Shown: in pieces, positions 1 through 16,209 of the stretch
How positions within the stretch are numbered: position 1 is the first letter of the stretch
Layout: every line of letters starts with the position of its first letter
DNA from: a virus
Taxonomy: Duplodnaviria; Caudoviricetes
Virus record (IMG/VR): IMGVR_UViG_3300017655_000254
Span: 1 to 39,115 of that record
Reading direction: 5' to 3' (one strand)
Length of the DNA: 39,115 bases
The notes under the pieces: model-generated
Seen by the model: only the letters and a program-made list of their open reading frames with translations
What the model was told of the DNA's origin: nothing
Database searches by the model: none
Position numbers and translations under genes: made by a program

Positions 1-1134
1 GTGGAATATCGAGCCCATAAATCGAAGTTGAGAAAGTACCGCGCCTTTGTCGATTGGACCATCGGCGGGGAGCGGAAACGGAAATACTTCACGTCGCACG
101 AGACGGCAAAGGGTTGGGCCGCCGACAAGAACCGGCATGTCTTGAACGTCGGCATCAACTCCGCCGTCTTGTCGGATCGGCTCCGGGTTCAAGCGCAAGA
201 AGCCGACGTGATGCTCCAACCCTACGGGAAGAGCATCATCGACGCCGTGAAATTTGCGGTCAGCCATTGGGAGGTTGCGAAGAACTCGCAGAAGGTGAGT
301 CACGTCATTAAAAAGCTCCTTGAAGAGAAGGAGAAGATGCGGAAGCAGGGGCTCCGGGGTGGAAGCGAGCGGTATTGCATCGACTTGAAATTGCGGCTCG
401 GTCGGTTTGCGAAGACGTACGGCGGTGCGAAGATTTCTGAAATTACGAGATCCCAGATTCGCGAATGGCTCGAAGGACTCTCCGGCGGCCCAGCCAACCG
501 GAACAACTGCCAAAGGGCGTTGTCGGTCTTGTGGGAGTACGCCCGGCATCGGGATTGGTGCAAAGGCAATCCCGTCAAGGAAATCAAGAAAAGCGAGACC
601 CCGGCGTCGAAGATTGAAATCTTGACCGTGCTGCAAACGGCCAAGCTGCTCGCGGGTGCGCCCCCGCATATTGTGCCGCATCTCGCCATCGGCCTATTTT
701 GCGGATTGCGCCGGTCGGAATTGGCGAGAGTGGGGCCGACAAGCGTCAAACTTGAATCCGGCTTGGTGGAAGTGAGCGTGACGAAAACGAAGGGGGCCGC
801 CCGGCGCTTCGTCCGCATCCGGCAGAACCTCCGCGCGTGGCTCCTGGGGTGCGGGCCCGTTGTTGACCTGACGCCGAACCAGTTCCGGGAAGGGCTCGAC
901 TCCGCCATCAAAGAATCGGGAATCAAGCGGTGGCCGAACAATGCCATGCGCCATTCTTTTTGCTCCTACGCCCTTGCCCATGATCGAAATCTCAACGACT
1001 TGACCCTCGAAATGGGCCACACCAACCCGCATACGATCTTCGCGCATTACCGGGAGCTTGTGACGCCCGCTGACGCCGCGGCTTATTGGCGGCTGACTCC
1101 GGCTAGGGCCGCCGCGCTTTCGGGCCGTCCGTAG
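1..1134 (+). CDS. int: Tyrosine recombinase / phage integrase
   Basis: Catalytic motifs GLRRSEL (R), KTK (K), AMRHSF (HxxR position, here NAMR), MGH and C-terminal HY; N-terminal arm-binding-like and SAM-like regions. Confidence 0.93.
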   Translation: MEYRAHKSKLRKYRAFVDWTIGGERKRKYFTSHETAKGWAADKNRHVLNVGINSAVLSDRLRVQAQEADVMLQPYGKSIIDAVKFAVSHWEVAKNSQKVSHVIKKLLEEKEKMRKQGLRGGSERYCIDLKLRLGRFAKTYGGAKISEITRSQIREWLEGLSGGPANRNNCQRALSVLWEYARHRDWCKGNPVKEIKKSETPASKIEILTVLQTAKLLAGAPPHIVPHLAIGLFCGLRRSELARVGPTSVKLESGLVEVSVTKTKGAARRFVRIRQNLRAWLLGCGPVVDLTPNQFREGLDSAIKESGIKRWPNNAMRHSFCSYALAHDRNLNDLTLEMGHTNPHTIFAHYRELVTPADAAAYWRLTPARAAALSGRP

Positions 1135-1181
1135 ACTCACGTTTCGGCCCCGCTTTTTCTGGCATCAAAAAGACCCATTTC

Positions 1182-1230
1182 ATTCTCATTCTCACGCCCC
1201 CTAAAGGGATGCGTGTGAGAATGAGAATTT
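1182..1230. repeat. 49-bp hairpin element, copy 1 (exact inverted repeat of 15601-15649)
   Basis: ATTCTCATTCTCACGCCCCCTAAAGGGATGCGTGTGAGAATGAGAATTT is the reverse complement of 15601-15649; it has 14-bp internal arms ATTCTCATTCTCAC/GTGAGAATGAGAAT. Confidence 0.95.
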
Positions 1231-1298
1231 CATAGGGTCTTTGCAGCCGTGGCTTTGATCTTTTGGGAAACCTCGCAGAATTCCGAGGCGGTAGAATG

Positions 1299-1586
1299 TC
1301 AGTTGTTATGAACACTCTCAAAAGCTCGGAGATTGGCGAAAGCCTTGCGACCATCGGAGTTGACCTTGTGCCCATTGGTGGCACACCAGGCCGGAAAAGT
1401 TGCCGGATCAATTTCAGCACGAACAATTCGAAGGCCGTCACCCGTGAGTTTCTTGAATCCTCTTTCGGCGGCTGCAAGCCAATCGTCGTAAACTGGCGGG
1501 AGGGCTTTGCCGTCGTCCATGATTTGCCGGATTGAGTCGTAGTCTTCCCTACGATACCACGCCATTCCTACTACTTGAATTTTCAT
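1299..1586 (-). CDS. Hypothetical protein (95 aa, WY.REDY...LP..YDDWL type)
   Basis: Protein-like ORF directly downstream of 1596-1955 on the same strand; function unknown. Confidence 0.75.
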   Translation of the reverse strand: MKIQVVGMAWYRREDYDSIRQIMDDGKALPPVYDDWLAAAERGFKKLTGDGLRIVRAEIDPATFPAWCATNGHKVNSDGRKAFANLRAFESVHNN

Positions 1587-1595
1587 AGCGGGGGG

Positions 1596-1955
1596 TCACT
1601 CTTCCATTTTCCAAGAGCCATCTGGTTGCCTGACGGCTTTGTCGCCGAAATCGAGTTCCTTTCTTTTCGGACCGTGCAGCTCAAGCCATGATTTAACCTC
1701 TTGGTCGATCATCATCTTTTGCATTCTGTAGCTCTCTGGGAACATTTCCGCCATATTCGCTTTGATCTTTTTCAAAACAGCGGGAGGCACGCCGGTATCA
1801 TCTTCGTTGTTGGCGACGGCTTCGGCTTTTGCCAACAGTTTCTCAAGAGCGGCTACCCGCTTTTCGAGATCGGCGAGCCGCTTTTCCTGACTGTCGGCTA
1901 GGGCTGGCATGGAGAGTGCAGCGAGGGCGAGGGCGGCAAATAAAATCCTTTTCAT
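1596..1955 (-). CDS. Exported coiled-coil protein with a gpD-like C-terminal peptide
   Basis: Sec signal MKRILFAALALAALSMPALA (ATG at 1955), coiled coil RLADLEKRVAALEKLL, C-terminal LDFGDKAVRQPDGSWK. Confidence 0.8.
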   Translation of the reverse strand: MKRILFAALALAALSMPALADSQEKRLADLEKRVAALEKLLAKAEAVANNEDDTGVPPAVLKKIKANMAEMFPESYRMQKMMIDQEVKSWLELHGPKRKELDFGDKAVRQPDGSWKMEE

Positions 1956-2029
1956 GGTGAGCAATGCCTTTAGCGGGGATTCTCCCGTAGGTCGAGCAGG
2001 AAAAAATCGCAACGTCCCGTATTTTTTCC

Positions 2030-2058
2030 TTGTAAAAAACTAGGGCGTCCCCCATGCT
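2030..2058 (+). promoter_or_regulatory. Putative sigma70-type early promoter
   Basis: TTGTAA-17 bp-CATGCT in the AT-rich gap between the divergent transcription units. Confidence 0.45.
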
Positions 2059-2112
2059 GCTTTCAGTTCCGAGGGTAACCGATCTTTACGAAGACGCGCC
2101 AACCTCCCGAAT

Positions 2113-2301
2113 GTGACGAAGAAAAAAGCGAATCCGATGAAGGGGGGGAGAAAACCGATTCCGAAAGAAGATCGGGTGGTGCCTCTCAACCTATCGGTAA
2201 AACCAGCAACCAGAGATCGCTTCAAGGGACTGGCGAAAGAGCTAAAGCTCTCAATGCCAAAGACCTTGGAGCATTTGATGGACGAAAACGAAAAGCGGTA
2301 A
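2113..2301 (+). CDS. Small ribbon-helix-helix-like DNA-binding protein
   Basis: GRKP basic motif, beta-strand VPLNLSV, then helices RDRFKGLAKELKLSMPKTLEHLMD. Confidence 0.6.
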   Translation: MTKKKANPMKGGRKPIPKEDRVVPLNLSVKPATRDRFKGLAKELKLSMPKTLEHLMDENEKR

Positions 2302-2308
2302 ACAAAGA

Positions 2309-2339
2309 CCCCGTAGGCGTGTACTAGACGCCTACGGGG
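2309..2339 (+). terminator. 12-bp GC-rich stem-loop (terminator or attenuator-like)
   Basis: CCCCGTAGGCGT-gtactag-ACGCCTACGGGG right after the RHH stop; no U-tract on the + strand. Confidence 0.45.
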
Positions 2340-2351
2340 CAGATACGAACG

Positions 2352-2507
2352 ATGACGCGCAAAACCCCATCGTCCGCAAGGGCAATCCTTACGCCCGAAA
2401 CCGGGCAAAACGCAAGCACGAAAACCCCGCAGAAGAACCCTTTCGCCAGAATGGACATTCTTCCCGGCGTGAAATACTTCCATGCTTTCGCGGGGGGTGC
2501 GGCATGA
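2352..2507 (+). CDS. Possible 51-aa leader protein (not in the ORF track)
   Basis: Open frame MTRKTPSS...HAFAGGAA* whose TGA overlaps the Bro-N ATG (ATGA). Confidence 0.3.
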   Translation: MTRKTPSSARAILTPETGQNASTKTPQKNPFARMDILPGVKYFHAFAGGAA

Positions 2508-3271
2508 GCGCCCTCCTTTCCCTTCAAGACTTTGCCGGAAACCCGATCAGGGTCTACGGATCGCCCGACTCTCCGCTCTTCGTCGCCGCTGATGTTTGCC
2601 GGGTGTTGGAAATCCAGAACGTCACCCAGGCCGTTGATCGTCTCGATGAAGATGAACGGTCTATGTTGAGCATAGGGCGTCAGGGTGAAGCCAACGTCGT
2701 CACAGAATCGGGCCTCTATGCCCTCATTCTTCGATGCCGGGACGCGATGACGCCGGGAACTAACGCCCACCGCTTCCGCAAATGGGTCACGTCCGAAGTT
2801 CTCCCGGCGATCCGGCAGACGGGCCGTTACCAAGCCCAGCAAGCGCTTCCCGCCCCGCAACAGGCATTACCGGCCCCTCAACCGTCTATCGTCGATAGCG
2901 AACCCGTCAAGGAACTCTTCGCGCTCATGGCGAAGCTTCGGAAGGGCGGCGTGTCCCATGATGCCGCCGCCCAGGTCGCAAGCGAGATGGTCCGGTCAAT
3001 GGCAAATCGTCGAGCGCAACAGGGGCGTGCGCCAAAGCCTCCGATGCTTCCGAAGCCGAAGCCGAAGCCTGACTATGCCGCGCCGATGATCGAGATCGTT
3101 CGGGAGGCCGTACATATTACGTCGCTCGACCTGCTCGGTCTTTGGTGTCTGAAAACCGGTCGCGCTCGCTCGATGGGTTACCGCACGATCCAACAGCTAC
3201 TCAAAGCTGGTCGGCTCAAGGTTACCGACGAGCACGGCCCCGGCTCGACCCGCATCATCGCCCTTCCGTAA
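2504..3271 (+). CDS. Bro-N domain antirepressor-like protein
   Basis: Bro-N motifs FVAADVCRVLEI, VTESGLYALILR, FRKWVTSEVLPAIRQTGRY; Pro-rich linker with QQALPAP twice; possible C-terminal winged HTH. Confidence 0.9.
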   Translation: MSALLSLQDFAGNPIRVYGSPDSPLFVAADVCRVLEIQNVTQAVDRLDEDERSMLSIGRQGEANVVTESGLYALILRCRDAMTPGTNAHRFRKWVTSEVLPAIRQTGRYQAQQALPAPQQALPAPQPSIVDSEPVKELFALMAKLRKGGVSHDAAAQVASEMVRSMANRRAQQGRAPKPPMLPKPKPKPDYAAPMIEIVREAVHITSLDLLGLWCLKTGRARSMGYRTIQQLLKAGRLKVTDEHGPGSTRIIALP

Positions 3272-3332
3272 GCCCCTCCTCTGAAAACCGTTCCCCGCGA
3301 GCAACAAGGCTCCCCCTCGCCCTGATCCCGCC

Positions 3333-3554
3333 ATGAATGACCATGCACGTGCACTATTGCAGGTAGCCAAGGAAAACCCGTGGCTGCAATTCAGCATGGC
3401 TGATCTCTCGGCTCTAATGGGCATCCCGAAGACAACCCTTGAGATGATGAACAAGACCGAAGACTCCCCCTTCGTTTCCGGGCGCTCTCGGCCTGAACGG
3501 GTGTCGGCATGGTTGGACAATCACCTTGGATGGAAGCCATCCGCAGAAAAGTAA
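3333..3554 (+). CDS. Small HTH-like protein (AlpA/Xis-like)
   Basis: FSMADLSALMGIPKTTL helix-turn-helix pattern. Confidence 0.55.
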   Translation: MNDHARALLQVAKENPWLQFSMADLSALMGIPKTTLEMMNKTEDSPFVSGRSRPERVSAWLDNHLGWKPSAEK

Positions 3555-3560
3555 GTCAAC

Positions 3561-3605
3561 CCCTATTTCCACCGATATTCACCCTATTTCCACCGATATT
3601 CACCC
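3561..3605 (+). repeat. Tandem 21-bp direct repeat (2 copies plus CCC)
   Basis: CCCTATTTCCACCGATATTCA at 3561-3581 and 3582-3602, intergenic. Confidence 0.9.
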
Positions 3606-3679
3606 GTTTTTGCCTGATTTAGAAAAACAGCGAAAAAACCGGGCCTATAACAGAACCCAACGAAACGCAAACCGCGCCA

Positions 3680-3868
3680 ATGAACGTAAAGAATTACCTG
3701 ACAAAAAAAGATGTAGCCGCCCGCTTCGGCGTCTCTCTTCCAACGCTTGATAGCTGGATGAAGGCGCGAAGGATCGGACATCTCCGCATTGGCGGGCGCA
3801 TCTACTTCACTGAACGCCATGTAGCTAACTTTGAGAAGCGCTGCGAAGTCGAACCCATTGCACTATGA
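3680..3868 (+). CDS. Excisionase-like HTH_17 DNA-binding protein
   Basis: YLTKKDVAARFGVSLPTLDSWMKARRIGHLRIGGRIYF is the classic MerR-like excisionase pattern. Confidence 0.85.
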   Translation: MNVKNYLTKKDVAARFGVSLPTLDSWMKARRIGHLRIGGRIYFTERHVANFEKRCEVEPIAL

Positions 3869-4083
3869 ACACAATCGAAACCGAAGAACTTAAATCAGTG
3901 TTCGCCGACCTGCTCGGCGAACCAAACGCAGAATGGAGGCTGGTCGAGCTTGTGACCGCATGGTCGAAGCGCACCGGCAAGCCCTTCCGTGATGGAAGCG
4001 CCCTTATCAACGGGATGTGGCGAAGCGGCGAGGTAGCAATCATCGGCCAGCGCGTCGAACTCATTAAGGGGGGAATCATCTGA
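3865..4083 (+). CDS. Hypothetical protein
   Basis: ATGA overlap with the previous gene and TGATG coupling to the next. Confidence 0.65.
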   Translation: MNTIETEELKSVFADLLGEPNAEWRLVELVTAWSKRTGKPFRDGSALINGMWRSGEVAIIGQRVELIKGGII

Positions 4084-4364
4084 TGCCTCACGAAGTTACC
4101 CTTCGCGCTCCTGTCTACGCCTTCCAGTGTTACGGCGTCCACGAAGCCAAGCAACTCGGGTTGATCGACTCATGGGAGAGGCCAGGCACCCACGCGCCGG
4201 TGTCGACACAGTTCGAGCACGGCGAGGGCAAGCTCCTTCATGACTGGATTGCCAACATGCCGGACGCGATCCTTGTTGCGACGGCCCGCTACGGAATCAC
4301 CGTCTATCGCCCGAAGAGCCGACTTTTGTCGGTTCCCGAAGAAGAGGAGGAAGGCAATGAATAG
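4083..4364 (+). CDS. Hypothetical protein
   Basis: Translationally coupled ORF with an acidic tail. Confidence 0.65.
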   Translation: MPHEVTLRAPVYAFQCYGVHEAKQLGLIDSWERPGTHAPVSTQFEHGEGKLLHDWIANMPDAILVATARYGITVYRPKSRLLSVPEEEEEGNE

Positions 4365-4590
4365 TCAGGAGTTCGCCCTCTTCCGTTGGCACGGTAAAGA
4401 CGATGGATTCGTTGAGTTCTTCGCGCCGATCACCCGCGACAACGGAATCACCTGGATTCATATTTCACGCGCCTTCGACTCCACCTTTGAAAGCATGAAG
4501 TCGCAAGCGACTCGAATCTATGAAGTCACGGGCTCTCTGGTCAGCCCAAAATCTTTCAAGCTTATCTATGATTGTTCCCCTTCTCTTTAG
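4357..4590 (+). CDS. Hypothetical protein
   Basis: ATG at 4357 preceded by GAGGAGGAAGG; overlaps the upstream stop. Confidence 0.55.
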   Translation: MNSQEFALFRWHGKDDGFVEFFAPITRDNGITWIHISRAFDSTFESMKSQATRIYEVTGSLVSPKSFKLIYDCSPSL

Positions 4591-4713
4591 CGCCTTCGCT
4601 TGGACCGCAATCGTGTTTTCCATTGGCTATTCAACCGGCAAGGGAAAGCGTCCCGCACAAAGGAAAATCTTCGAACCCTACTACTTCCGGGGCTAACAAC
4701 CCAAACATCTCCC

Positions 4714-5766
4714 ATGTCTACACCTACCCCAATCAACCGCGCCCTTGCCTACTTGGATAGCTTGCCGGTGGATCATGAGCTTGAAAAGGCCCGTGCTCTC
4801 ATGGTCGGCTACGACCTTCGATGGTACAAAAAGTATCGCTTCTATAAGGTGATCGCGGTCGAGGAAGAATTTCGTTTTCCACTCCTCAACCCCGAAACCG
4901 AAGGGATGTCGAAGACCTTCGACGAGGGCGGGAAGATCGACGCGATCTTGCAGCACGAAGACAGCGGTCGCTACCTTGTGCTTGAGCATAAGACAACCGC
5001 CGAATCTGTCGCGCCCGATAGCGACTACTGGCACCGCTTGGCGATGGACACGCAAAGCAGCAAGTACATTCTCGCCCTCAAGCAAAGGGGGCTGGACGTC
5101 GGCAACCTGCTTCACGACGTCATTAAAAAGCCAGGATCGCGGCCCCGTCAAATTCCAATCCTCGATAGCGACGGCGTCAAGATCGTGCTCGATGCCAACG
5201 GCGAGCGCGTGAAAACGAAGGACGGCAAGAAGTGGCGTGAGAGCGCCAGCACAGGCGACGGTTACGTTTTGCAGACCCGACAGGAAACCCCGGAAGAATA
5301 CGGCGCACGGCTCGAAGAGGAAATCACCAGCAATCTCGACGACTACTTCGCGCAACGCGAGGTTCCCCGGCTCGACGCCGACTTGCTCGAATACATGGGC
5401 GACGCCTGGGCGCAGTCGCAACAGATTCTTCACTACCGGAGATTCAACCTCTGGCCCAGGAACCCGAGCGCGTGCTCTCTCTTTGGTCAGTGTGAGTTTT
5501 ACGACCTTTGCACCGGGCGGGCGTCGGTCGACGGCATCCGCTTCCGCGAAAAGGGCCGCAAGCATAGTGAACTTGAAATGGAAGAGGGCGAAAGGGAACT
5601 GTTGACGAACTCCCGTTTGACGGCTCTCCGCAAATGCGCTCGTTACCATTACCACCGCTACGAAAAGCCGATTGAGCCGACGAAGGAAGAGAGCGAAGCG
5701 CTTCGGTTCGGAACGCTCATGCACAAGGCTTTTGAGATTTACTTTAAGTCGATGATGGTCGGCTAA
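4714..5766 (+). CDS. PD-(D/E)XK exonuclease (RecB/AddB/Cas4-like, predicted Fe-S), apparently circularly permuted
   Basis: AVEEEF, GKIDAIL and VLEHKT catalytic motifs; CxxxxxCxxxxxC cluster; the usual N-terminal motif (TNSRL...C...Y...ALRFG...H) lies at the C-terminus. Confidence 0.85.
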   Translation: MSTPTPINRALAYLDSLPVDHELEKARALMVGYDLRWYKKYRFYKVIAVEEEFRFPLLNPETEGMSKTFDEGGKIDAILQHEDSGRYLVLEHKTTAESVAPDSDYWHRLAMDTQSSKYILALKQRGLDVGNLLHDVIKKPGSRPRQIPILDSDGVKIVLDANGERVKTKDGKKWRESASTGDGYVLQTRQETPEEYGARLEEEITSNLDDYFAQREVPRLDADLLEYMGDAWAQSQQILHYRRFNLWPRNPSACSLFGQCEFYDLCTGRASVDGIRFREKGRKHSELEMEEGERELLTNSRLTALRKCARYHYHRYEKPIEPTKEESEALRFGTLMHKAFEIYFKSMMVG

Positions 5767-5770
5767 AGCT

Positions 5771-5866
5771 TTGATCCGGTCACGGGGTAAATAGTGCGCC
5801 GCTCGAAACGGTAGTCAACTCCATCGCCCGCCTCCGTAACCAAATAAAAGCGGGGCACCGGATCAA
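5771..5866 (+). ncRNA. Candidate structured intergenic RNA
   Basis: Perfect 10-bp closing stem TTGATCCGGT/ACCGGATCAA enclosing three short potential hairpins. Confidence 0.3.
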
Positions 5867-6028
5867 TCTCTCATGGGTTAAGAAAGGAGGGTTATCTATA
5901 TGTAAACTCAAATCGTGTCGGTGTTTTTCATGCTCCATAGCCTTTCCGGTGGGTGGTTAAACCGGACCTTTTTCCAATCTCTAAACGGCGTCCCTCGCGC
6001 CTGGCCCCCCGGCCCCTGCTTTACTGTT

Positions 6029-6337
6029 ATGTTTTCGGACCCAAACCCCGCACAATACGAAGTGCTTAAACCCTACATCACGCCGCGCGTTCAAGAGCTT
6101 GTTCGCGGTCGGCTCCTGGAGGGGCTGCGGTTCTTCGACAAGCGCGTTCTCCGACCGGAGTACAGCCGCGCGGAGGTGAAGCTCGCGCTTCTCTTGATCC
6201 GAATCGCCAACCCTCAAGAAACACTGGTCACCGAAGAGTTCCGCATCTTGGAGCGCCTTCCCCAGATCAACCCCACATCAAAACCAGCCCGGTCAACGGG
6301 CCGCAAGAACGTCAAATCACCTACCGAGGAACGGTAG
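6029..6337 (+). CDS. Hypothetical protein
   Basis: ORF from ATG 6029 (MFSDPNP...) with phage-like codon usage; start uncertain. Confidence 0.55.
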   Translation: MFSDPNPAQYEVLKPYITPRVQELVRGRLLEGLRFFDKRVLRPEYSRAEVKLALLLIRIANPQETLVTEEFRILERLPQINPTSKPARSTGRKNVKSPTEER

Positions 6338-6389
6338 CATCTTTGCTCCCTATGTCGGGGCGCAGAAACCCACACTAACAAAGAACAAT

Positions 6390-6821
6390 ATGAACATCAC
6401 AGCAACACAGCTCAAATACGCCAGGGAACGAATCTACCAGATCGCGGAGACGAAGACCCGGCGCTTCGTCAAGGCGCTCCCAACGGTCCCCGATTTCGAC
6501 AGCGAAATTGAAAAGCTCATCGACTCCGGCACGGCGAAGCTTCGCGCCAAAGAGGCCATTCTTCGCGCCTATCAGCAGTCGGGCCGTCGCTATATCGAGA
6601 TTGAAAAGGTGTTCGATTTCGGCGACCTCAAAGAGCGATGCCAGGCCGCCGCCGACCTGCATCAATCGCAGAGGGAGCAGATCAAGCGGAAGGTCAACCG
6701 GTACGCAAACCGGATTATCGACGACCTCGTCACCGGCAAGCAAGCCGAACTGGACGTTGCTATTGAAGCAATGCTCAAGCTGAACAGCGTCGACGTGACC
6801 AGCGAAGGGAGCGAAGAATAA
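6390..6821 (+). CDS. Hypothetical helical protein
   Basis: 143-aa ORF coupled by TAATG to the ATPase gene. Confidence 0.75.
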   Translation: MNITATQLKYARERIYQIAETKTRRFVKALPTVPDFDSEIEKLIDSGTAKLRAKEAILRAYQQSGRRYIEIEKVFDFGDLKERCQAAADLHQSQREQIKRKVNRYANRIIDDLVTGKQAELDVAIEAMLKLNSVDVTSEGSEE

Positions 6822-7762
6822 TGAGCTACCTTTCAAAGATCAAGAAGGGCGCTGTCGACCTTCCCCCGCGCGTGGTCCTTTCCGGGCCGGAGGGAATCGG
6901 GAAATCTACCTTCGGAGCGAACGCGCCCGATCCCCTGTTCATCGCCGCCGAAGACGGCTTGACGGGTCTTGAACACATCAACCGGTTCACGCCGACCGAC
7001 TACAAGGAACTTCTCGGGTTCCTTGACGACATGGAGGCAGACGCGAACGTCCCGTTTAAGACGCTGGTCCTCGATACTGTCGACTGGCTCGAACGTCTGA
7101 TTCAGGGCCATTGTTGCAAGCGCGACAAGAAAGCCAACATCGAAGCCTACGGCTACGGGAAAGGCTATAAAATCGTCGAGCCCGAACTGGTTGCTTTGCT
7201 GGCTCAACTCGACCGCATCCGGCACAAGCACAAGGTAGCGATCATTATCCTTTCGCACGTCCACATCAAAAACCACACGCCTCCCGGCGGTGAGCCGTTC
7301 GACCGCTACGAAATGAAGGGGCACAAGGGCTTCACCGGCATCTTGCGCGAATGGCCCGACGCTTGCCTTTTCGCCGTCTACGAAACCTTCAAGACCGAAG
7401 ACGACGACGGCCACAAGAAGGTGATCGGCGGTGATCGCATCATGCATACCAGTTGGGCTCCCGGCTGGGACGCGAAGAATCGCTACAACCTGCCGGAAAT
7501 CCTCCCGCTCGACAAGGATCGCGGTTTCTTCGCCTTCCTGGAAGCGGTTGACGAGCATCGCAACCAGCCGGTCGTCAAGCCGACGAAGGAAGAGCTTTGC
7601 GACCAGATCAAGAACCTTCTCCCCCTCGCCACCTTCGCCAGCGAGGAAGACAAAGCCAAGGCAATCGCCTGGGCGGAAACCCTCGACAGTCAGCCAGTCG
7701 AGAAACTCGAAAGCGGGCTTAAATGGCTGCAAGCCCAGGTCGATAAAGAAGAAGAATCATGA
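6821..7762 (+). CDS. AAA_24 / Sak4-like ATPase (ssDNA annealing recombinase)
   Basis: Walker A GPEGIGKST, Walker B LVLDTVDWLE, GYGKGY and AKNRY motifs; lies between the exonuclease and the SSB. Confidence 0.88.
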   Translation: MSYLSKIKKGAVDLPPRVVLSGPEGIGKSTFGANAPDPLFIAAEDGLTGLEHINRFTPTDYKELLGFLDDMEADANVPFKTLVLDTVDWLERLIQGHCCKRDKKANIEAYGYGKGYKIVEPELVALLAQLDRIRHKHKVAIIILSHVHIKNHTPPGGEPFDRYEMKGHKGFTGILREWPDACLFAVYETFKTEDDDGHKKVIGGDRIMHTSWAPGWDAKNRYNLPEILPLDKDRGFFAFLEAVDEHRNQPVVKPTKEELCDQIKNLLPLATFASEEDKAKAIAWAETLDSQPVEKLESGLKWLQAQVDKEEES

Positions 7763-8277
7763 GCAAATACATTGATGCAGTCGGTAGCTTTCGCTGCCGC
7801 GTAGTTGAGCCGGAAGCAGGTTGGCTCGGGGAAACCGAAAAGGGAACGCCCTTTATTCGTATCCCGCTGACGGTTTCCGATGAAGAGAGCGACCAGAACG
7901 GAAACACGATCATCTACCAAGCCTACCTTTCCGACGCGGCTATCGACCGCACGGTCAAAGACTTGACGGAGGTCTTCGGATGGGACGGCGATCTGCAAGC
8001 GCTGGTGTCGGGCAACGCAACCTTTACCGACATGGAATGTGTGATCGTCACGGAAAGCGAGACCTACGAAGGGAAAGAGCGCATCCGCGTCAAGTTCCTC
8101 AACTCGATTCACCGGACGGCCCCGAAGCTTGATCAAGCGAAGGTTAATAGCCTTCTCGCCAAGCTGAACAGCCGCACGAAGGCTGTTGCAAAAGCGGCGG
8201 GCGGTTCGTCACCAGCGAAGCCCGCCGCGAAAGCTCCACCGAAGCCAGCGCCCGAGAAAGTCGACGCGCCCTTCTAA
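7759..8277 (+). CDS. Single-stranded DNA-binding protein (DUF669-like)
   Basis: Follows the Sak4-like gene; beta-rich core, ETYEGKERIRVKFLN, flexible tail ending DAPF. Confidence 0.75.
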   Translation: MSKYIDAVGSFRCRVVEPEAGWLGETEKGTPFIRIPLTVSDEESDQNGNTIIYQAYLSDAAIDRTVKDLTEVFGWDGDLQALVSGNATFTDMECVIVTESETYEGKERIRVKFLNSIHRTAPKLDQAKVNSLLAKLNSRTKAVAKAAGGSSPAKPAAKAPPKPAPEKVDAPF

Positions 8278-8305
8278 CCAACAACCAGAAAACCAGCATA
8301 GCAAT

Positions 8306-8983
8306 ATGAACGCTGAATTGCCTACAAGCACGATTGAAAGGAAGAACCTTGAATACAGGTTCACAAACGACGAACTTCTCGGGATCGCGAAGAAGGCCGC
8401 CGAAGAGCAGACCCGCCTCAAGTCTCTTGAGGAGTCAAAGAAGATGGTCATGGACGAATGGAAGGCGAAGCTTTCCGCGTGCCAAGCCGAAATCACCAAC
8501 CTTTCCAACAAGGTTTCTTCCGGCATTGAATACCGGGACTACGATTGCCCGGTCGTCTACAACGAACCCCGCAAGGGCTTCAAGACCTGCTACCACCCGG
8601 AGACCCGCGAAGTCGTCTATGTCAAGGAAATGACCCAGGGCGAAGTTGATAAGACTTCCCAGGCCGTCCTGGACTTTGACGCCGATTCCGAAGCCACCCA
8701 AACGCCGAGCGACGGCGACGCCGAGAGCGGTTCCGGTGCTTCATTCGACGTGCTGGCAGGTCCGCCCGAAGAGCCAGCGCAAGAAGAGGCCGAAGCCAAA
8801 GCCGAACCCGACCAGGCTCCCGAGCCGGAACCGGAACCGGAGGCCCCGGCGGAAGAGCCTGAATCGAAGCCGACGCCGAAGAAGCCGAAGCGCACGCGCA
8901 AGCCGAAGGCGAAGCCCGACGCTGCCCCCGCTCCGGAGGAAGAGCCCGAAGAGGAGCAGGAAGAGATTCCCGGCGCTCCCTAG
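8306..8983 (+). CDS. Coiled-coil protein with an acidic Pro/Glu-rich disordered tail
   Basis: ATG 8306; coiled-coil N-half and low-complexity C-half; the frame continues 21 codons past the TAG. Confidence 0.75.
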   Translation: MNAELPTSTIERKNLEYRFTNDELLGIAKKAAEEQTRLKSLEESKKMVMDEWKAKLSACQAEITNLSNKVSSGIEYRDYDCPVVYNEPRKGFKTCYHPETREVVYVKEMTQGEVDKTSQAVLDFDADSEATQTPSDGDAESGSGASFDVLAGPPEEPAQEEAEAKAEPDQAPEPEPEPEAPAEEPESKPTPKKPKRTRKPKAKPDAAPAPEEEPEEEQEEIPGAP

Positions 8984-9097
8984 GGTGTCGAGGTCATCGA
9001 CGAAGAACCCGAAGACCTCGACGAGAACCCGGCCCCTCCGTTCGCCTAACCATCCACCCCGGCAAGGTCCGATCCCTTGTCACTTCCTTTCCTATTT

Positions 9098-9556
9098 ATG
9101 ATTCAATTTTTCATTCCCGGCCACCCTCCCCGCGTCACGAAGCAAATGAAGAAGATCATCTTCTCCCGTGGCCGCGTCATGCACATCGACACCCCTGAAC
9201 TCAAGGAAGCGACCGCCTTCCTCCAAGAAAAGATGCTACCCTTTCGCCCCAGGACTCCGCTTGTCGGGCCGTTGAAGCTCATCGCCGTTTGGGTCTTCCC
9301 GCACCTCAAGGGCGCTGGCAAGTCCACTCGCGAAAGCATCATCTACAAAGACACCGCGCCTGACCTGGGCAACATGGAAAAGCTCTTCGCTGACGTCATG
9401 CAGCGCATGGGATTCTTTGCGAACGACGGCCAGATTGCTTGTGAGCCGCTGGTGAAGGTCTGGGGGCCGAAGCCAGGGATCGCGGTCTCTGTCAGCGAAA
9501 TGACCGGCCCGGTCGAAGAATGGGTGACTGATCTGATTGAGGAGGTTGTACGATGA
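9098..9556 (+). CDS. rusA: RusA-like Holliday junction resolvase
   Basis: FFIPGHP, PDLGNMEKLFADVM and NDGQI match the RusA PDxDNxxKxxxD...DDxQI pattern with substitutions. Confidence 0.8.
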   Translation: MIQFFIPGHPPRVTKQMKKIIFSRGRVMHIDTPELKEATAFLQEKMLPFRPRTPLVGPLKLIAVWVFPHLKGAGKSTRESIIYKDTAPDLGNMEKLFADVMQRMGFFANDGQIACEPLVKVWGPKPGIAVSVSEMTGPVEEWVTDLIEEVVR

Positions 9557-10386
9557 AACTTTCCGTTCCCTACCGCTACCTTAACGCGCTGGCCCGATTC
9601 TGCCGGGACGGTCGGAGCCGACCGGTTCTTTCCGGGATTCTTGTCGAGGCAACCGACACCGATGTTTTCCTTGTCTCCACCGATGGCATTAGGCTCGGAG
9701 TCATTTCGATGCCGGTCGAAGAAGCCCTTTGCGACGACACCGACGAAACGGGGAGCTTCATTATTCCGAAGTTGCTTGTCGAACAGCTTCGGTCACTCGA
9801 TGGAGACGCAGCTACCGCCAAGCTGAAGATCAAGGGAGACAAGGTCTCCATCACGATGACGTTGCCTTACGATCATTTTGGCTGCACTAGCTTTGGGAAA
9901 TTGATCAACGGGAACTTTCCGGCATGGCGTGGCGTGTTTACTCCCTTTTCAACCGAGCCCATCGGCACCACTGTTGTTGATCCGGTCTATATGAGGAGCT
10001 TCGGCAAGGTCGGGGCGATCCTGCAAGCCAAAGGGCAATGCCGGGGGATGGTTGTCTCCAGGCTCAAGCCTGACGCCTATTGGGACAAGGGCGAATCGCC
10101 GGTGGTGTTCCGGTTTACGCATACCCCCAGCTTCGTCGGGTTGCTCATGCCGATGAAGAGCGATAGCCCAGACATCAACGTCAATGCGGTCGCTACCCTG
10201 CCGGGTTGGGTCAGGCCAGAAGTCGCCGAGCGCTGGGGTGATCGAGTCTGGATCGTTCCGCCGGGCGCTCGCATCTTCCATCTCAAGCGGCAAGAGTGGA
10301 TCGACGCCCCCGGCGTCGGCGAGCCATCGGGTCGGGGGATTCTCTACCGGGTTCCCGTTGGCGTGGAAAGCGAGGCGGCGAAATGA
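9553..10386 (+). CDS. DNA polymerase III beta-clamp-like protein (truncated phage version)
   Basis: RPVLSGILVE, VSTDGIRL, GNFPAWRGVF and GLLMPM resemble DnaN motifs (ATDGHRL, GxFPDYxxVI, vvMPM). Confidence 0.75.
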   Translation: MKLSVPYRYLNALARFCRDGRSRPVLSGILVEATDTDVFLVSTDGIRLGVISMPVEEALCDDTDETGSFIIPKLLVEQLRSLDGDAATAKLKIKGDKVSITMTLPYDHFGCTSFGKLINGNFPAWRGVFTPFSTEPIGTTVVDPVYMRSFGKVGAILQAKGQCRGMVVSRLKPDAYWDKGESPVVFRFTHTPSFVGLLMPMKSDSPDINVNAVATLPGWVRPEVAERWGDRVWIVPPGARIFHLKRQEWIDAPGVGEPSGRGILYRVPVGVESEAAK

Positions 10387-10664
10387 GCGCGTCGCATACA
10401 CCGGGGCCGTTGGAGATTCGGCCATCGCTAACCGGAAGCGGAAGAAGCTTTGCTATCACCTCAAACGGGGTGCGCGTAGCCCTATTTGAGAATAAGGCCG
10501 ACGCCGCCCTCTTCGTCGCCGCGCCGGAGTTGCTGGAAGCATTGAAAGAGCTTGAGGGTATTCAGACCGGGCCTCCCCCGGATAGGTATTACCGAGAAGA
10601 TTGGCGTCAGGTCATGCGCAAAGTGAGCGCCGCCATCGCCAAAGCAGAAGGAGGCCAGCCTTGA
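10383..10664 (+). CDS. Phage hypothetical protein (HTPGP...AAPELLEAL type)
   Basis: ATG 10383 overlapping the upstream stop; motifs common in phage early genes. Confidence 0.8.
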   Translation: MSASHTPGPLEIRPSLTGSGRSFAITSNGVRVALFENKADAALFVAAPELLEALKELEGIQTGPPPDRYYREDWRQVMRKVSAAIAKAEGGQP

Positions 10665-10876
10665 GCGCCTTTACCGATCAATCGCCGATGCCGTTCGGAA
10701 AGCACAAAGGAGAGAAGATGGAAAACGTTCCGGCTGATTACCTCCTTTGGCTATACGATCAGCGCCCGAGTCATGCAGGGGTTACAGCATACATCGAGCA
10801 ATCATACACCGCTTTGATTAAAGAGTGTCGGGACTACATCCCGAAGCGGTCACCGAAAGGGGAAAGCTCGACGTGA
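10661..10876 (+). CDS. DUF3820 / ExoX C-terminal-like small protein
   Basis: MPFGKHKGEKMENVPADYLLWL motif; TTG start after GGAGG. Confidence 0.82.
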   Translation: MSAFTDQSPMPFGKHKGEKMENVPADYLLWLYDQRPSHAGVTAYIEQSYTALIKECRDYIPKRSPKGESST

Positions 10877-11094
10877 GCGAAGAGGTCAAACCGACGATGC
10901 CCCCGAAATCCCGCTTGCACAAACTCACAGCGGGAGTTCCCAGGCGGGCAAACTGGGACAACTACGGCGATGTTCTGGCCGCGTGCGACCGATGGCTAGC
11001 AAAGCGCGGCATCCTGAACAATCTACCCAAAAACAACAACTGGCTTTTTGAACGTGGGAAAAACAGCAAGAGACTACCAAAACGAGGGGATTGA
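10873..11094 (+). CDS. Hypothetical protein
   Basis: GTGA overlap with the previous stop; fills the gap in the operon. Confidence 0.5.
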   Translation: MSEEVKPTMPPKSRLHKLTAGVPRRANWDNYGDVLAACDRWLAKRGILNNLPKNNNWLFERGKNSKRLPKRGD

Positions 11095-12160
11095 CTGGCT
11101 CGCGCAAACCTTTCGCGGAATCCTTAAGTGTCCGGCAGGGGGCGGGAAGACCTTTATCGCGACATCTGCCATTGATCGGGTTGCGCGAGGCCACCAGCGG
11201 GCCGCCAAGGCGCGGATCACCTGGCTTGCGAACACGCGGGAGCAGGTCGAGCAAGCGGAAGAAGCTTTCTCTTTCTTCCCGGCGATCAATCAGCTTTGCC
11301 GGGTCCGCGTAGCGTGCTGGCAAGGCGGCTCAGATTGCAGCGAGGAAGACCTCGTCGTCGTCGACGAGTGTCACCATGCCGGAGCGCCGACCCTTGGCGC
11401 ACTGGTGGCGACCGCGCCGCGTGCTCGATGGGGCCTGTCTGCTACCCCGTTCGGCGGCGATCCCGAAAAGAACCTGGCGTTGATGGCGCTCTTTGATCAC
11501 CAGATGTTCGAGATTGATCGGGCGCGGATCGTCGACGGCGGCCACCTGACGAAGGCGCGGGTGCATCTCCATAGCGACACGGACCCCGGCATCGCGGAGA
11601 TCATCGAGGACGCGCTTCCGAAGCTGCTAGAAGAACGCATGAAGCGTTTCCGTCACCTGGACGAAGTCGAACAGCGCCAGCGGATCACGTGGCAACTCTG
11701 CCAGACGCACGGGATCGTTCGGAACTATGTCCGCAACCGGCGGGTAATCTCGCTCGCCAGCCAGAACGACGCCGCGCTTGTTCTTGTCGGCACGGTCGAC
11801 CACGGCGCGATGCTCGCAGAAGAGATCGAGGGCGCGGTTGTCTGTCACTCAAAGATGGGAGTCAAACGCCGCCGTGAAGCCATCGCAGCGTTCCGGGACG
11901 GCTCCCTTCGCTGCATGATCGCGACTTCCCTTGCCGACGAGGGGTTAGACGTTCCACGCGCTTCGACGCTGATCCTCGCTTGCGCCGGTCGGTCGGCGGC
12001 CAAGGTCGAGCAACGGACGGGGCGCGTGCTTCGGACCTTTGCAGGAAAAGAACACGGCATCATTCACGACTTCGTGGACCGGCAACATCCGATGCTTCAT
12101 TCACAGCACAAGAGCCGTTTAAGGCTATACAAAAAACTAGGTTACGAAATTTCGCAATGA
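11048..12160 (+). CDS. SF2 DExH helicase (ResIII-like)
   Basis: RDYQ Q-motif, PAGGGKT, DECHH, SAT, EGLDVP, QRTGRVLR; start uncertain. Confidence 0.92.
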   Translation: MNVGKTARDYQNEGIDWLAQTFRGILKCPAGGGKTFIATSAIDRVARGHQRAAKARITWLANTREQVEQAEEAFSFFPAINQLCRVRVACWQGGSDCSEEDLVVVDECHHAGAPTLGALVATAPRARWGLSATPFGGDPEKNLALMALFDHQMFEIDRARIVDGGHLTKARVHLHSDTDPGIAEIIEDALPKLLEERMKRFRHLDEVEQRQRITWQLCQTHGIVRNYVRNRRVISLASQNDAALVLVGTVDHGAMLAEEIEGAVVCHSKMGVKRRREAIAAFRDGSLRCMIATSLADEGLDVPRASTLILACAGRSAAKVEQRTGRVLRTFAGKEHGIIHDFVDRQHPMLHSQHKSRLRLYKKLGYEISQ

Positions 12161-13398
12161 ACCTTTCAGAAGAACAAACCAACGTCATCGACGACATCAA
12201 GGCCGGAAAGAACATCCTCGTCACCGGATCGGCGGGAACCGGCAAGTCAACTCTCTTGCGAGTCGTCAGAGACGAACTTGAAATCCCTGTCACCGCTTCG
12301 ACCGGCATTGCCGCGGTCAACGTAGGCGGGCGCACGATCCATTCCTGGGCGGGTCTTGGGCTCGCTCGGGACAACGTTAAAGACCTCGTGACGAACATGG
12401 GCAGCCAACCCTTTCAGCGCATCCGCGAAGCAAAGGTGTTGGCTATTGACGAAGTGTCAATGATAAGCGCCGAACTTTTCGAGAAGATCGACCATGTCTT
12501 TCGGATGGTGCGCCGTGACACGTTTCCCTTTGGCGGGATGCAGATCATCCTTTTCGGCGATTTCTTGCAGTTGCCGCCGGTTCAGAAGGGCGCGGAAGAC
12601 CTGATTAAACGGGGCGTGTTCCCGTTTGAAACAGATTCGTGGCATCAGGCCAAGTTCAAAACGCATTTTCTGTCAAAGGTGTTTCGCCAGGCTGACGCGA
12701 AGTTTTCGTCGGTCTTGAACAAGATTCGTTTCGGCGAGATCACCGGCGACGTGTCGGCGCTCCTGAACGAACGCTACCAGGCCAAAGACGAAAACCCGAA
12801 CCTTGAGCCGGTTGTTGTCCACACGCACAATCTGAACGTCGATGCGATCAATGAGCGGCGGCTTGCCACGGTCGACGGAGAGCCCCGCACCTTCATCGCC
12901 GACGACTACGGCGAGCCCGGCGCGGTGAAGATGCTCGATAAAAATTGCCTTGCGCCGAAGATTTTGAAATTGAAGGTCGGCGCTCAAGTGATGCTCTTGA
13001 CCAACATCAACACAGAAGCCGGGCTTGCGAATGGTAGCGTCGGGACCGTGGTCGAGTTCCGTGACGGGCTCAACGGGCCGCTGGTGAAGGTGTTCTTCAA
13101 CAACGGCGAGACGTACAGCGTTGGGCTGAATAAGTGGGAGATCAAAGAGGGAAAGGATGTCATCGCCACGCGCTCCCAGATCCCGCTACGGCTGGCCTGG
13201 GCGATCACCGCACACAAGAGCCAGGGGATGACGCTCGACAAGATTCAGGTTCATCTCGGCAAATGCTTTGAGTACGGGCAAGCGTACGTCGCGTTAAGCC
13301 GCGCCCGGACCACCGAAGGCTTGTTCATTGCGGACGGGACAAGAGACTCGATCAAGGCGCATCCAAGCGCCGTTGAGTTTTACCGTTCCAGCTTATGA
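12157..13398 (+). CDS. Pif1-family SF1B DNA helicase
   Basis: GSAGTGKS, TIHSWAGLG, IDEVSM, PFGGMQIILFGDFLQLPPV, FRQ, LAWAITAHKSQGMTLD, GQAYVALSR. Confidence 0.92.
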   Translation: MNLSEEQTNVIDDIKAGKNILVTGSAGTGKSTLLRVVRDELEIPVTASTGIAAVNVGGRTIHSWAGLGLARDNVKDLVTNMGSQPFQRIREAKVLAIDEVSMISAELFEKIDHVFRMVRRDTFPFGGMQIILFGDFLQLPPVQKGAEDLIKRGVFPFETDSWHQAKFKTHFLSKVFRQADAKFSSVLNKIRFGEITGDVSALLNERYQAKDENPNLEPVVVHTHNLNVDAINERRLATVDGEPRTFIADDYGEPGAVKMLDKNCLAPKILKLKVGAQVMLLTNINTEAGLANGSVGTVVEFRDGLNGPLVKVFFNNGETYSVGLNKWEIKEGKDVIATRSQIPLRLAWAITAHKSQGMTLDKIQVHLGKCFEYGQAYVALSRARTTEGLFIADGTRDSIKAHPSAVEFYRSSL

Positions 13399-15509
13399 GT
13401 GACTTTTCTGCAAAACTGGCCGACGCAAGAGCGCGGGGGTTCACGCTCGATCGTGTCATGCGGGAGCTTGGTCACGGTGATTTCGTCAAGCGGTCGTGCA
13501 AGAGTCCTTTCCGTGAGGAGAGAACGCCGTCCTTTGGCGTCTGGCATGATAGCGCGGGCGTGATGAAGTGGAAGGACTTCACCACCGGCGAAAGCGGCGA
13601 TGAAATCGACTTCATCGCGATGGCGAACGGCTTTTCGTCGAAAGAGGCCACCGACTTCTATTTCAGCATGGCGGGCGTCGAGACACCTTCCGGGGATCGG
13701 CCCCCGGCCCCGAAAAAGAAGAAGCCGACGCCAGCGCCTCCGAAACCTGCGTCGCCCCTTCGTGTTTACGAGCCGGAACTTGCGCCCTTCGACTGGAAAG
13801 CGTGCGTTGCAGCCCTGACCCCGGAAAAGATTGAAGGCTTCGCCGGATGGCGCGGCTACTCAACAGAATTTGTTCAATGGCTCAAATCGCAAGAACTGAT
13901 CGGGATGCACGGCATTTACCCGGCAACGCCAGTAGTCAAAGACGGCGTTGTGATCGGTTGCCAGTACCGCACAACAGACGGCGACCGGTACGTCAATGCC
14001 ACCAGAGGCGAGAAGACCCCGGCCATGCCGTTGATCATCGGCAAGCCGGATGCTCAAATCCTTCTGGCGATGGAAAGCCCATGGGATGCTTTTGCCTTCA
14101 TGGAAGGACTCGGCTTTCACAAGACCAACGGAAATGACGTGGTTTGCCTGGCCGTGACCCGATCCGCCAGCAATTACAAACGGTTGAAGGGCATCCTCGA
14201 AGAGCGCGCGAAATCGAAGGCACCGGGCGACGTGATCCTTGTCGGCCAGAATGACCCGCCCAGAAAGGACGGGAAGCCGACCGGGCATGACACGCTTGAA
14301 AAGGGGTTGCGCGAACTTTGCGAGGAAACCGGACTGACGCTCAAGCTGTCGATGCCGCCGGAGCACGTCAAAGATTATAATGATTGGTGGCGTGAAGCGC
14401 CAGACATCGGCGATTTCATTGCTCCCATTGAAGAAGCGAAAACCAAAACGAACAGCAGCCTTTCAAATCAGGAACTCAAAATCATCATGAAATCTACCTT
14501 CGACGATAACGACAATTTCTTCGGCGACCGCGTCCTTGCGGAAGGCCAGCCAGCAACGATTCTTGGACCGGGCGGCGTCGGCAAGTCGCGGCTCGTGATG
14601 CAAATGGCGATCTGCATGATCCTGGGTAAGCCGTTCCTGGGCATCAAGACGCACGCGACGCACAAGCATTGGCTTTTCCTTCAAACCGAAAACAGCACGC
14701 GCCGGTTGCAACACGATCTGAAAGGCATCATCAAAGGCCTTGGCATCACGGAAAAGGAAATCGACGTGCTCAACGATCACATGGTTTTTCATACCATCGA
14801 GCACGATCACGATTGCTTCCTCGCCTTGAACAACCCGGAGGAATTCAAGCAGGTTCAACTTTTCATCACGGACTTTAACCCTGACTTCGTGGTGTTCGAC
14901 CCCTTGAATACCTTCACGACCGGCGATCTGAACAGCGATGCCGACATGCGGGAAGTTTGCTCGCTCATCACAAAGGCCACGAAGCGCGGCAAGGCAAAGC
15001 GGGTGCCAATCGTGGTGCATCACTCCCTTACCGGCAAAGCAGGCGCTCAAAAGGCAACCGGCTGGGATAAGGCCAGCTACGGGCGCAACTCCAAGGCGTT
15101 GCAGGCGTGGACGCGCTCCCAGATCAATATCGCCCCGCGCGATCCCGACGACAACACGAAGCTTCTGATCACGTGCGGCAAGAACAACAACGGCGCGCCG
15201 TTCCCTGACATTGGCGTTTACTTCGATGAAGAAGAGTGGATTTACAAAATTGATGAAGATTACGATCCCCAGGAGTTTCAGGAGAGTGTCGGCAATGTCA
15301 AGAAGAGCAAAAAACCGAAGCAGGAACCCGCTGAAGTGATTCGTTTGTTTGATGATAAGATATATGGCGTTGATCTTATACCATTGGTTCGGGAGCACTA
15401 TAAGTGCAGTCAAGCAACGGCTTATAGAACTCTAAAACAGGCCATAGCAGATGGGTTTATCAGTAGCGAAGGCGATGGAAAGACCACTCTTTACCGAAAG
15501 GTCAGATGA
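13395..15509 (+). CDS. Primase-helicase (degenerate zinc-binding-like domain, TOPRIM-like domain, AAA_25/RepA-like helicase, C-terminal HTH)
   Basis: SPFREERTPSF, MESPWDA, GQND and KDYND; Walker A GPGGVGKS, Walker B VVFDP, VHH; C-terminal SQATAYRTLK. Confidence 0.85.
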   Translation: MSDFSAKLADARARGFTLDRVMRELGHGDFVKRSCKSPFREERTPSFGVWHDSAGVMKWKDFTTGESGDEIDFIAMANGFSSKEATDFYFSMAGVETPSGDRPPAPKKKKPTPAPPKPASPLRVYEPELAPFDWKACVAALTPEKIEGFAGWRGYSTEFVQWLKSQELIGMHGIYPATPVVKDGVVIGCQYRTTDGDRYVNATRGEKTPAMPLIIGKPDAQILLAMESPWDAFAFMEGLGFHKTNGNDVVCLAVTRSASNYKRLKGILEERAKSKAPGDVILVGQNDPPRKDGKPTGHDTLEKGLRELCEETGLTLKLSMPPEHVKDYNDWWREAPDIGDFIAPIEEAKTKTNSSLSNQELKIIMKSTFDDNDNFFGDRVLAEGQPATILGPGGVGKSRLVMQMAICMILGKPFLGIKTHATHKHWLFLQTENSTRRLQHDLKGIIKGLGITEKEIDVLNDHMVFHTIEHDHDCFLALNNPEEFKQVQLFITDFNPDFVVFDPLNTFTTGDLNSDADMREVCSLITKATKRGKAKRVPIVVHHSLTGKAGAQKATGWDKASYGRNSKALQAWTRSQINIAPRDPDDNTKLLITCGKNNNGAPFPDIGVYFDEEEWIYKIDEDYDPQEFQESVGNVKKSKKPKQEPAEVIRLFDDKIYGVDLIPLVREHYKCSQATAYRTLKQAIADGFISSEGDGKTTLYRKVR

Positions 15510-15535
15510 CAAAAAATCAATCATTTAATCTGTCG

Positions 15536-15657
15536 TTCTCATTCTCATTCTCAAAAAAACAATGAGAATGAGAAGTGATAACCGTCGCCGTATCCCGTTC
15601 AAATTCTCATTCTCACACGCATCCCTTTAGGGGGCGTGAGAATGAGAATCGAACGGG
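15536..15657. repeat. TTCTCA/TGAGAA inverted hexamer cluster including hairpin copy 2; putative replication origin
   Basis: (TTCTCA)x3 at 15536-15553, A-rich spacer, (TGAGAA)x2 at 15563-15574, then the 49-bp element at 15601-15649; just downstream of the primase-helicase. The origin role is inferred. Confidence 0.8.
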
Positions 15658-15756: not shown

Positions 15757-16209
15757 ATGCCTTCGCTTCCGCTACCTCCCACCGCTCAACTGATCGCTGA
15801 TTGCATCGGCAGAAATGCAACTCTCAAGCTGGTCAGGTGCAACCCATATTGCAAACATCGTTGCATCTATGTTCCGAAGGAGATGCCCGATGACTATTGG
15901 ATTGTTAATGCCATAGGCAAGCGGCTCGCTATGATATTACAGAGGGAGTTCGGTGGCGAGTTATTGCCATTGGCTAAATGCACAGCGCTAGAGCATGAGC
16001 AGCGCAACCGGGAGATTCAAGCGGGCATCAGGCGCGGGCAATCCATTCGAGCGCTGGCCCAGCGCTACGAACTGACGTCGAGCCGAGTGCATCAAATCAT
16101 CATGGGCGACTACGGGCGTTTCCGGCGCACCGGCAACGGAGCCAGAGGGCGGCGACCGGCGGCGACCCGGCTACCCGAAAAGCAGGGGGTTTTTTCATGG
16201 CTCTCATAA
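15757..16209 (+). CDS. Mor/C-family transcription activator
   Basis: IADCIG..ATLKL, IYVP, FGGELL.L, RNREI and HTH SIRALAQRYELTSSRVHQII; sits between the replication and packaging modules. Confidence 0.85.
   Translation: MPSLPLPPTAQLIADCIGRNATLKLVRCNPYCKHRCIYVPKEMPDDYWIVNAIGKRLAMILQREFGGELLPLAKCTALEHEQRNREIQAGIRRGQSIRALAQRYELTSSRVHQIIMGDYGRFRRTGNGARGRRPAATRLPEKQGVFSWLS

Follow-up and report, generated by a model that had tools for sequence, protein, structure and literature searches.

A prophage hairpin present as a distant inverted pair: likely half of a replication origin and candidate second binding site for its Rep protein

Why would a temperate phage keep the same 49-bp hairpin, in inverted orientation, at both ends of its early region? 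The question is raised by IMG/VR virus record IMGVR_UViG_3300017655_000254 (positions 1 to 39,115; this whole stretch of 39,115 nt is referred to as the window), in which one copy of the element (copy 1, the distal copy, 1182-1230) is located past the integrase gene and a second (copy 2, 15601-15649) lies 14.4 kb away, past the gene for the primase-helicase Rep. The answer favoured here, to which we give a probability of roughly 0.6, is that copy 2 belongs to the replication origin and that copy 1 is bound by Rep as well, in which case it may stall the replication fork and switch the phage to concatemer replication.

The pair itself is real, as the first-pass annotation of the window had reported: copy 1 is the exact reverse complement of copy 2, and the match is maximal, neither side being extendable. 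About 1e-20 such pairs would be expected by chance, and the second-longest exact inverted match within the window measures 17 bp. The positions given in that annotation for the 14-bp arms (1182-1195/1215-1228), for the core of 19 bp and for the two outer stems are likewise correct. It had called the outer stems unrelated to each other, but they are in part homologous: the similarity extends to 57 bp (94.7%), and CCC...GGG is found at identical offsets in both. Four TGAGAA words are arranged in copy 1 as converging pairs around a CCC-TAAA-GGG core; together with its outer stem this copy occupies 1167-1242, and five U residues come after the hairpin when it is read on the minus strand, which makes it resemble a terminator for the leftward genes. 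Copy 2 with its outer stem spans 15594-15657, and a similar stem is present at the related locus L098. Both copies fold much more strongly than shuffled sequence (RNA z -5.3 to -8.0). An Rfam search with the element returned sub-threshold miRNA-type matches only, and GC skew has no clear turning point at either copy. Misassembly is an unlikely source of the pair, given that G000, the genome in question, contains a second prophage of matching layout whose copies have diverged and are not identical; two public runs from one sample, which consist of contigs, contain no joint at which the strand changes, but these contigs break at the repeat and cannot phase its orientation. Another strong hairpin (2309-2339), terminator-like on the minus strand, follows an RHH gene and is preceded by AAAGACCC, as in the outer stem of copy 1.

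Rep (13395-15509, plus strand; 704 aa) comprises a CHC2-like domain, a TOPRIM domain, an AAA_25 (SF4) helicase and a C-terminal winged helix. A predicted structure of the whole protein matches the folds of T7 gp4, Twinkle and RSF1010 RepA, and the C-terminal 68 residues give structural matches to winged helices, the best with Z 8.2 and an rmsd of 2.5 Å over 63 aligned residues. Between the rep stop codon and copy 2 is a first TGAGAA array (15536-15574) with five words in both orientations and an A-rich spacer, and altogether nine words are found within 185 nt of the rep stop. This array, like a third TGAGAA cluster at 16202-16296, had been overlooked by the first-pass annotation.

The arrangement is shared with many related rep loci. 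From 127 loci examined, 115 had enough DNA past the rep stop and 93 were unique, this prophage and the second prophage included. An array, defined as a hexamer with at least four copies in both orientations directly past the rep stop, was detected in 59 of these 93 loci versus 10 of 279 control windows taken inside rep, a few of the 59 calls being weak or false (e.g., L088). Most of the array loci have converging words around a CCC-TA..-GGG core, ∼60-110 nt past the rep stop. The core is 15-17 bp long in 28 of 43 distinct cores (one of them mis-called), within a family range of 12-25 bp, and its first inner pair is complementary in 81% of the 43, compared with 33% when partners are swapped and 42% when they are swapped within the same word; these pair counts were made without the MAFFT alignment of the cores, which was out of register. 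A YTA triplet seen in 43/43 cores was dropped as circular, as the search pattern had demanded TA. The hairpin is present as a single copy in most relatives, and is often near-palindromic. Position and shared anatomy suggest that copy 2 is likely to be the hairpin half of a family-wide origin-type module, with the first array as its likely loading or melting half. We are fairly confident in predicting 15536-15657 as the origin, at which Rep hexamers would load at the A-rich array and open the copy 2 hairpin. A CCCCC-TAAA-GGGGG core with other flanking words also follows more distant rep-like genes outside the family (L008, L009, and G043:C12).

Origins of comparable layout have been described for the Rep and PriRep proteins of SaPI and PICI elements, where the sections cited place the origin immediately 3′ of rep, with hexamer iterons in both orientations that are bound by a C-terminal winged helix, and with a self-loading helicase (bioRxiv 10.64898/2026.10.17.759575; PMC6092414). 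Those systems differ in using SF3 or MCM-type helicases and a single origin of ∼300 bp around an AT-rich stretch, and no conserved GC hairpin is described in the same sections.

Which protein reads the hexamer is indicated by covariation between the repeat word and the recognition helix of Rep. The comparison was based on the 51 of the 59 loci whose word ends in GAA or GAC, reduced to 44 by dropping helicases >90% identical. Word similarity followed the helix (r 0.53, partial 0.52; 0/5000 permutations) and to a much lesser extent helicase identity (r 0.20, partial 0.12; 43/5000 permutations). When a 7-residue window was slid along the C-terminal half of Rep, residues 672-678, the start of the recognition helix (codons at 15408-15428, plus strand), gave the best value of the 338 (partial r 0.63, median 0.017), the best window beginning before residue 633 reaching 0.19. 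TGAGAA is paired with the helix CSQATAY (this Rep, L078), CSKATAY (L059) or CSSASAY (L158), carried by helicases that are 41-47% identical and branch at three separate points of the tree. In L050 and L098, which are the closest relatives, both the helix and the word (CGCGAA and GTGGAA, respectively) are different. An earlier run with 19 loci only was not significant (157/2000 permutations). Because the word tracks the recognition helix and not the helicase tree, TGAGAA is very likely the word that the Rep winged helix binds, and the 49-bp hairpin would be a binding unit for the prophage's own Rep.

Evidence on the distal copy comes from the second prophage, which brings the number of copies in G000 to four, two of them its own. 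It is located at tRNA-Lys(TTT) and is split over C34 (10163-end) and C100 (1-29927; loci L003, L004, and L005), the join having been deduced from matching repeat ends and gene order. Compared with the first prophage, its Rep is 88% identical and its early region related, its integrase is 30% identical, its cargo is unrelated, and its late genes and tRNA target are different. Its distal copy is likewise found directly past the int stop codon and keeps 47 of the 49 bases, whereas the four-fold sites of rep differ at 128/280 (46%) between the two prophages (binomial p ∼1e-10). The conserved island extends over ∼90 bp in which arms, core and outer stem are kept, with unrelated neighbours on both sides; the unpaired internal loops have changed, which argues against a recent transfer of copy 1. 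The two changes in the distal copy form one compensatory pair and yield TGATAA, a word that is also present in that phage's own origin. Between its two copies there are five differences, among them an inserted base in the core, which is otherwise invariant across all four copies. Copy 1 is probably bound by Rep and functional, because words, core and stem all appear to be under purifying selection. In neither prophage does copy 1 have a counterpart of the A-rich array and, because this is missing, copy 1 would bind Rep without firing.

For what Rep might do there, the closest precedent is Bacillus phage SPP1. The terminase large subunit encoded in the window (16944-18980, plus strand) is of the GpA type, and GpA terminases are lambda-type concatemer cutters. 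By analogy with the proposal for SPP1 oriR, Rep at copy 1 would stall the fork and lead to recombination-dependent concatemer replication; the stalled fork would be processed by the phage RusA-like Holliday junction resolvase (9077-9556), PD-(D/E)XK exonuclease (PDDEXK_1; 4600-5766) and Sak4-like single-strand annealing protein (6821-7762), all encoded on the plus strand, and the resulting concatemers would feed the terminase. In the parts of the SPP1 literature cited here, two origins, oriL and oriR, are 12-13 kb apart, and the initiator (G38P) is thought to block forks at the second (PMC3485210; PMC6316719; PMC5499656), whereupon a RusA-like resolvase, an exonuclease and an annealing protein restart the stalled forks for concatemer synthesis (PMC3485210; PMC6316719); what triggers the theta-to-sigma switch in phages is treated as an unsettled question in PMC5499656. 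The same texts reveal both likenesses and differences. Two sites for one origin-binding protein lie >12 kb apart with one of them at the initiator gene, the early region encodes exonuclease, annealing protein and RusA-like resolvase, and concatemers are needed for packaging. SPP1, however, is lytic, has separate initiator, loader and helicase proteins, packages by the headful and combines direct repeats with an AT-rich element at each of its two sites, whereas the prophage is temperate, with a fused primase-helicase-winged helix protein, a GpA terminase, and inverted words around a hairpin. An SPP1-type switch fits since the phage encodes exonuclease, annealing protein and resolvase as well as a GpA terminase, and the distal site has no A-rich array. 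A fork block is nonetheless a tentative choice of mechanism for copy 1, preferred here by a narrow margin to priming and to crr-like control.

Several points weigh against this interpretation. A plain roadblock is not obviously in need of a kept hairpin core or outer stem, the fork block in SPP1 is itself a proposal in the cited papers, and Rep binding, origin firing and fork stalling are predictions from sequence. The recognition helix and the word anchor were first chosen by eye, after looking, and kin are not independent. The winged helix also adjoins the array, and joint swapping of the two would inflate the covariation, although wing residues, which are closer to the DNA than the helix, score <0.25. 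The spacing of the copies is not conserved between the two prophages, being ∼37% of the circle (14.4 kb) in the first and ∼50% (∼18.9 kb) in the second, and for the same reason a resemblance to the two-thirds spacing of mitochondrial OH/OL was dropped.

The distal copy is also dispensable across the family, and the case for it rests on two prophages of one genome. The first-pass annotation had suggested looking for the same pair of sites in related phages; this was borne out in the second prophage of G000, but no hairpin copy of this kind was found in 18 other extended elements, not all of which cover the whole element. Neither the complete chromosome G062, which has a prophage with a 56% identical Rep, nor G061 (an incomplete contig) yielded a second copy, and none was found in 150 other genomes of the host family, save for one weak 21-nt match. 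Three distant matches among the 18 elements are scattered degenerate arrays (G066), a direct-repeat array (G073) and an unrelated repeat (G083). Apparent second copies in L050 and L088 were rejected as a chance 20-mer inside the Sak4 gene and an unrelated GC-rich repeat, respectively. Further close relatives were found neither in viral contigs, where DNA patterns picked out 3 and 0 stretches, nor in 151 family genomes, 401 order genomes (with Sak4) and 401 phylum genomes (with the primase half). In G066:C1, at ∼4.002-4.005 Mb and 4.070-4.076 Mb (L060, L253-L255), several degenerate copies of that element's own iteron module occur in both orientations, some 70 kb from rep; one pair lies on either side of what is probably a transposase gene, assigned by eye to the IS110 type, and the module may be mobile.

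Four other explanations of copy 1 have to be considered. The terminator-like features described above raise the possibility that it is an old duplicate of the origin hairpin in which Rep plays no part: it may now act in RNA form, as a hairpin for termination or processing where int and the leftward genes converge, or it may mark a conserved boundary between modules. In both prophages copy 1 sits 35-50 nt past the int stop, between convergent genes, with five U residues after the stem on the minus strand; the outer stem has been kept while its loops diverged, the sole change being a compensatory pair; the hairpin at 2309-2339 begins with the same AAAGACCC; and the scattered degenerate arrays of one relative indicate that such modules do duplicate. 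A terminator, however, requires structure and not 47/49 fixed bases including the loop, and a consensus terminator scan made no call at copy 1. As a full account of copy 1 this is therefore unlikely, although a terminator role is a real rival and may also be an additional function.

In a second alternative, copy 1 would be a hairpin that serves the opposite strand from a distance, for priming or as an auxiliary initiation site, in the manner of RSF1010 ssiA/ssiB. The first-pass annotation had proposed opposite-strand priming hairpins or a bipartite origin as its favoured model. The broad replication reading in that proposal is supported, because the element is tied to the winged helix of Rep and the layout resembles that of P4, but priming of the ssiA/ssiB kind is not required, given that relatives have single, often near-palindromic copies, which suffice. 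In favour of priming, pairing is conserved beyond the words themselves, as seen in the first inner pair of the 43 cores, the core is invariant in the four copies save for one inserted base, and the tip reads CTA or TTA, depending on the strand. These triplets are those given for the primases of S. aureus and Geobacillus in the section cited (PMC2532735), and RSF1010 is described as priming at two hairpins on opposite strands (PMC8567376). The primase half of Rep argues in the other direction. Its CHC2-like domain (window 13395-13690) has other residues at all four zinc-ligand positions of 1d0q, a primase domain from Bacillus. In the TOPRIM domain the acidic motif is Q285-N-D287, with QND in 20/20 aligned proteins. 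The first Asp of the TOPRIM DxD motif matters, and the Rep primase may be unusual or inactive. Moreover, 31 of the 42 array loci with enough upstream sequence have no match to this TOPRIM domain, and a DnaB N-terminal domain was instead found above the Pfam cut-off in 9 of 31 proteins scanned; the Pfam scan covered the rep frame only, and a separate primase of another type is possible in those loci. Hairpins also feature in RSF1010 initiation, and the helicase domain of Rep matches the RSF1010 RepA fold, but RSF1010 RepB′ is an archaeo-eukaryotic-type primase rather than a TOPRIM enzyme such as the T7 gp4-like one here, and the ssi sites lie inside one oriV, apart from the iterons, which in the prophage form the stem (PMC8567376). 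Plasmid pRN1 similarly has an essential stem-loop origin 3′ of its rep gene, but with an archaeo-eukaryotic-type primase and, in the section cited, no iterons (PMC4234260). On balance a priming role for copy 1 is doubtful.

Phage P4 provides the model for a third alternative, in which copy 1 is a crr/ori-like partner or a handcuffing site, such that Rep would bridge the copies and thereby either license the origin or hold it back, for instance during lysogeny. P4 crr and ori share one iteron and bracket the early operon, as the two copies do here, with crr just 3′ of the alpha gene and ori ∼4.5 kb from it, on the far side of the alpha operon's 5′ end (GenBank X51522 annotation). Alpha is likewise described as a TOPRIM primase-helicase with a winged-helix origin-binding domain (PMC4234260), and the variable spacing of the copies suits a looping partner. 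There are differences, in that crr consists of two 120-bp direct repeats and P4 is a satellite phage, whereas the prophage is a full temperate phage with a shared hairpin, an SF4 AAA_25 helicase and a zinc-less CHC2-like domain, its distal site being missing in relatives. The alpha helicase, by comparison, is of the SF3 type, and P4 replication requires both ori and crr in cis. The relatives of the prophage, on the other hand, presumably replicate with one site, and titration would have no need of a hairpin core, which makes control of this kind improbable.

Finally, the copies could be sites for site-specific recombination, which the first-pass annotation had put forward in two forms, an early-region inversion switch driven by the integrase and a 2-micron-like Flp/FRT flip that generates concatemers. 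The copies are indeed inverted and, in this prophage, perfectly identical, one is at the origin, which is where Futcher amplification needs one recombination site, and Sak4 or RecA could occasionally invert or homogenize 49 bp, such conversion being a possible cause of the perfect identity. Both forms nevertheless fail and recombination is highly improbable: the element persists beside two integrases that are 30% identical and have different tRNA targets; CTGGCGAT repeats, likely to be the arm sites of the integrase, flank both att sites (L001:9974-9993 and L002:1336-1373) and are missing from the element; tyrosine-recombinase partner sites (Int, Flp/FRT) have an identical spacer of 6-8 bp, whereas the core is 19 bp here and the copies of the second prophage differ at five positions with an indel in the core; the word follows the helix of Rep; and no second recombinase was found among the 56 ORFs scanned.

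The element that remains to be placed is the third TGAGAA cluster (16202-16296), which contains five words and a 41-bp palindrome, lies between the Mor-like activator gene and terS, and has a chance expectation of ∼2e-7. It may link Rep to the start of packaging or to a late promoter. It was not seen in the second prophage, nor in any of the 9 of 16 terminase relatives scanned, these relatives being only ∼40% identical.

The window corresponds to G000:C20:13730-52844 and to a complete-looking temperate prophage of ∼39.4 kb, flanked by a partial tRNA-Leu (C20:13494-13572) on one side and an intact tRNA-Leu(TAA) (C20:52936-53022) on the other. Its tyrosine integrase (1-1134, plus strand) has att sites outside the window, in tRNA-Leu(TAA). 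The early region encodes an antirepressor, excisionase, exonuclease, Sak4, RusA, clamp-like protein, two helicases and Rep, and the other modules include the integrase, Mor-like activator, GpA terminase and a contractile tail. Within the replication module are a phage sliding-clamp-like protein (9553-10386) and a Pif1-like helicase (11980-13398), and the baseplate spike gene has three in-frame 51-nt repeats (25847-26010). In related prophages (G062: L051 and L186; G061:C17) the integrase is located at the tail end, facing the late genes; in both G000 prophages it is at the early end. Among annotated phages, DNA comparison gave nothing with an E-value below 5 and protein comparison gave two weak matches, and PADLOC recognized none of nine cargo proteins. 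Most of the 36 genome loci with a related rep and a taxon belong to the Verrucomicrobiota, from which the host is likely to be a verrucomicrobium.

The general design, an origin after rep and a distant second site, has precedents in SPP1 and P4. What is newest here is the code that links recognition helix to word, together with the persistence of the distal copy despite an exchange of integrase. The module provides a mapped candidate origin for a widespread SF4 helicase-winged-helix replicon family in Verrucomicrobiota, of which no description was found in the literature searched. As the 49-bp site is present in some relatives and missing in others, the idea of a second site is directly testable, and the covariation between helix and word amounts to a specificity code found in nature, which short oligonucleotides would suffice to test. 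More speculatively, a single hairpin read by Rep might serve as origin and, as a remote inverted priming or stalling site, time the switch to concatemers, with the cluster before terS linking replication to packaging, and a code of seven residues and six bases might allow predictable, re-programmable orthogonal replicons for Verrucomicrobiota. Such a code could give compatible replicons, of use in a phylum for which genetic tools are scarce.

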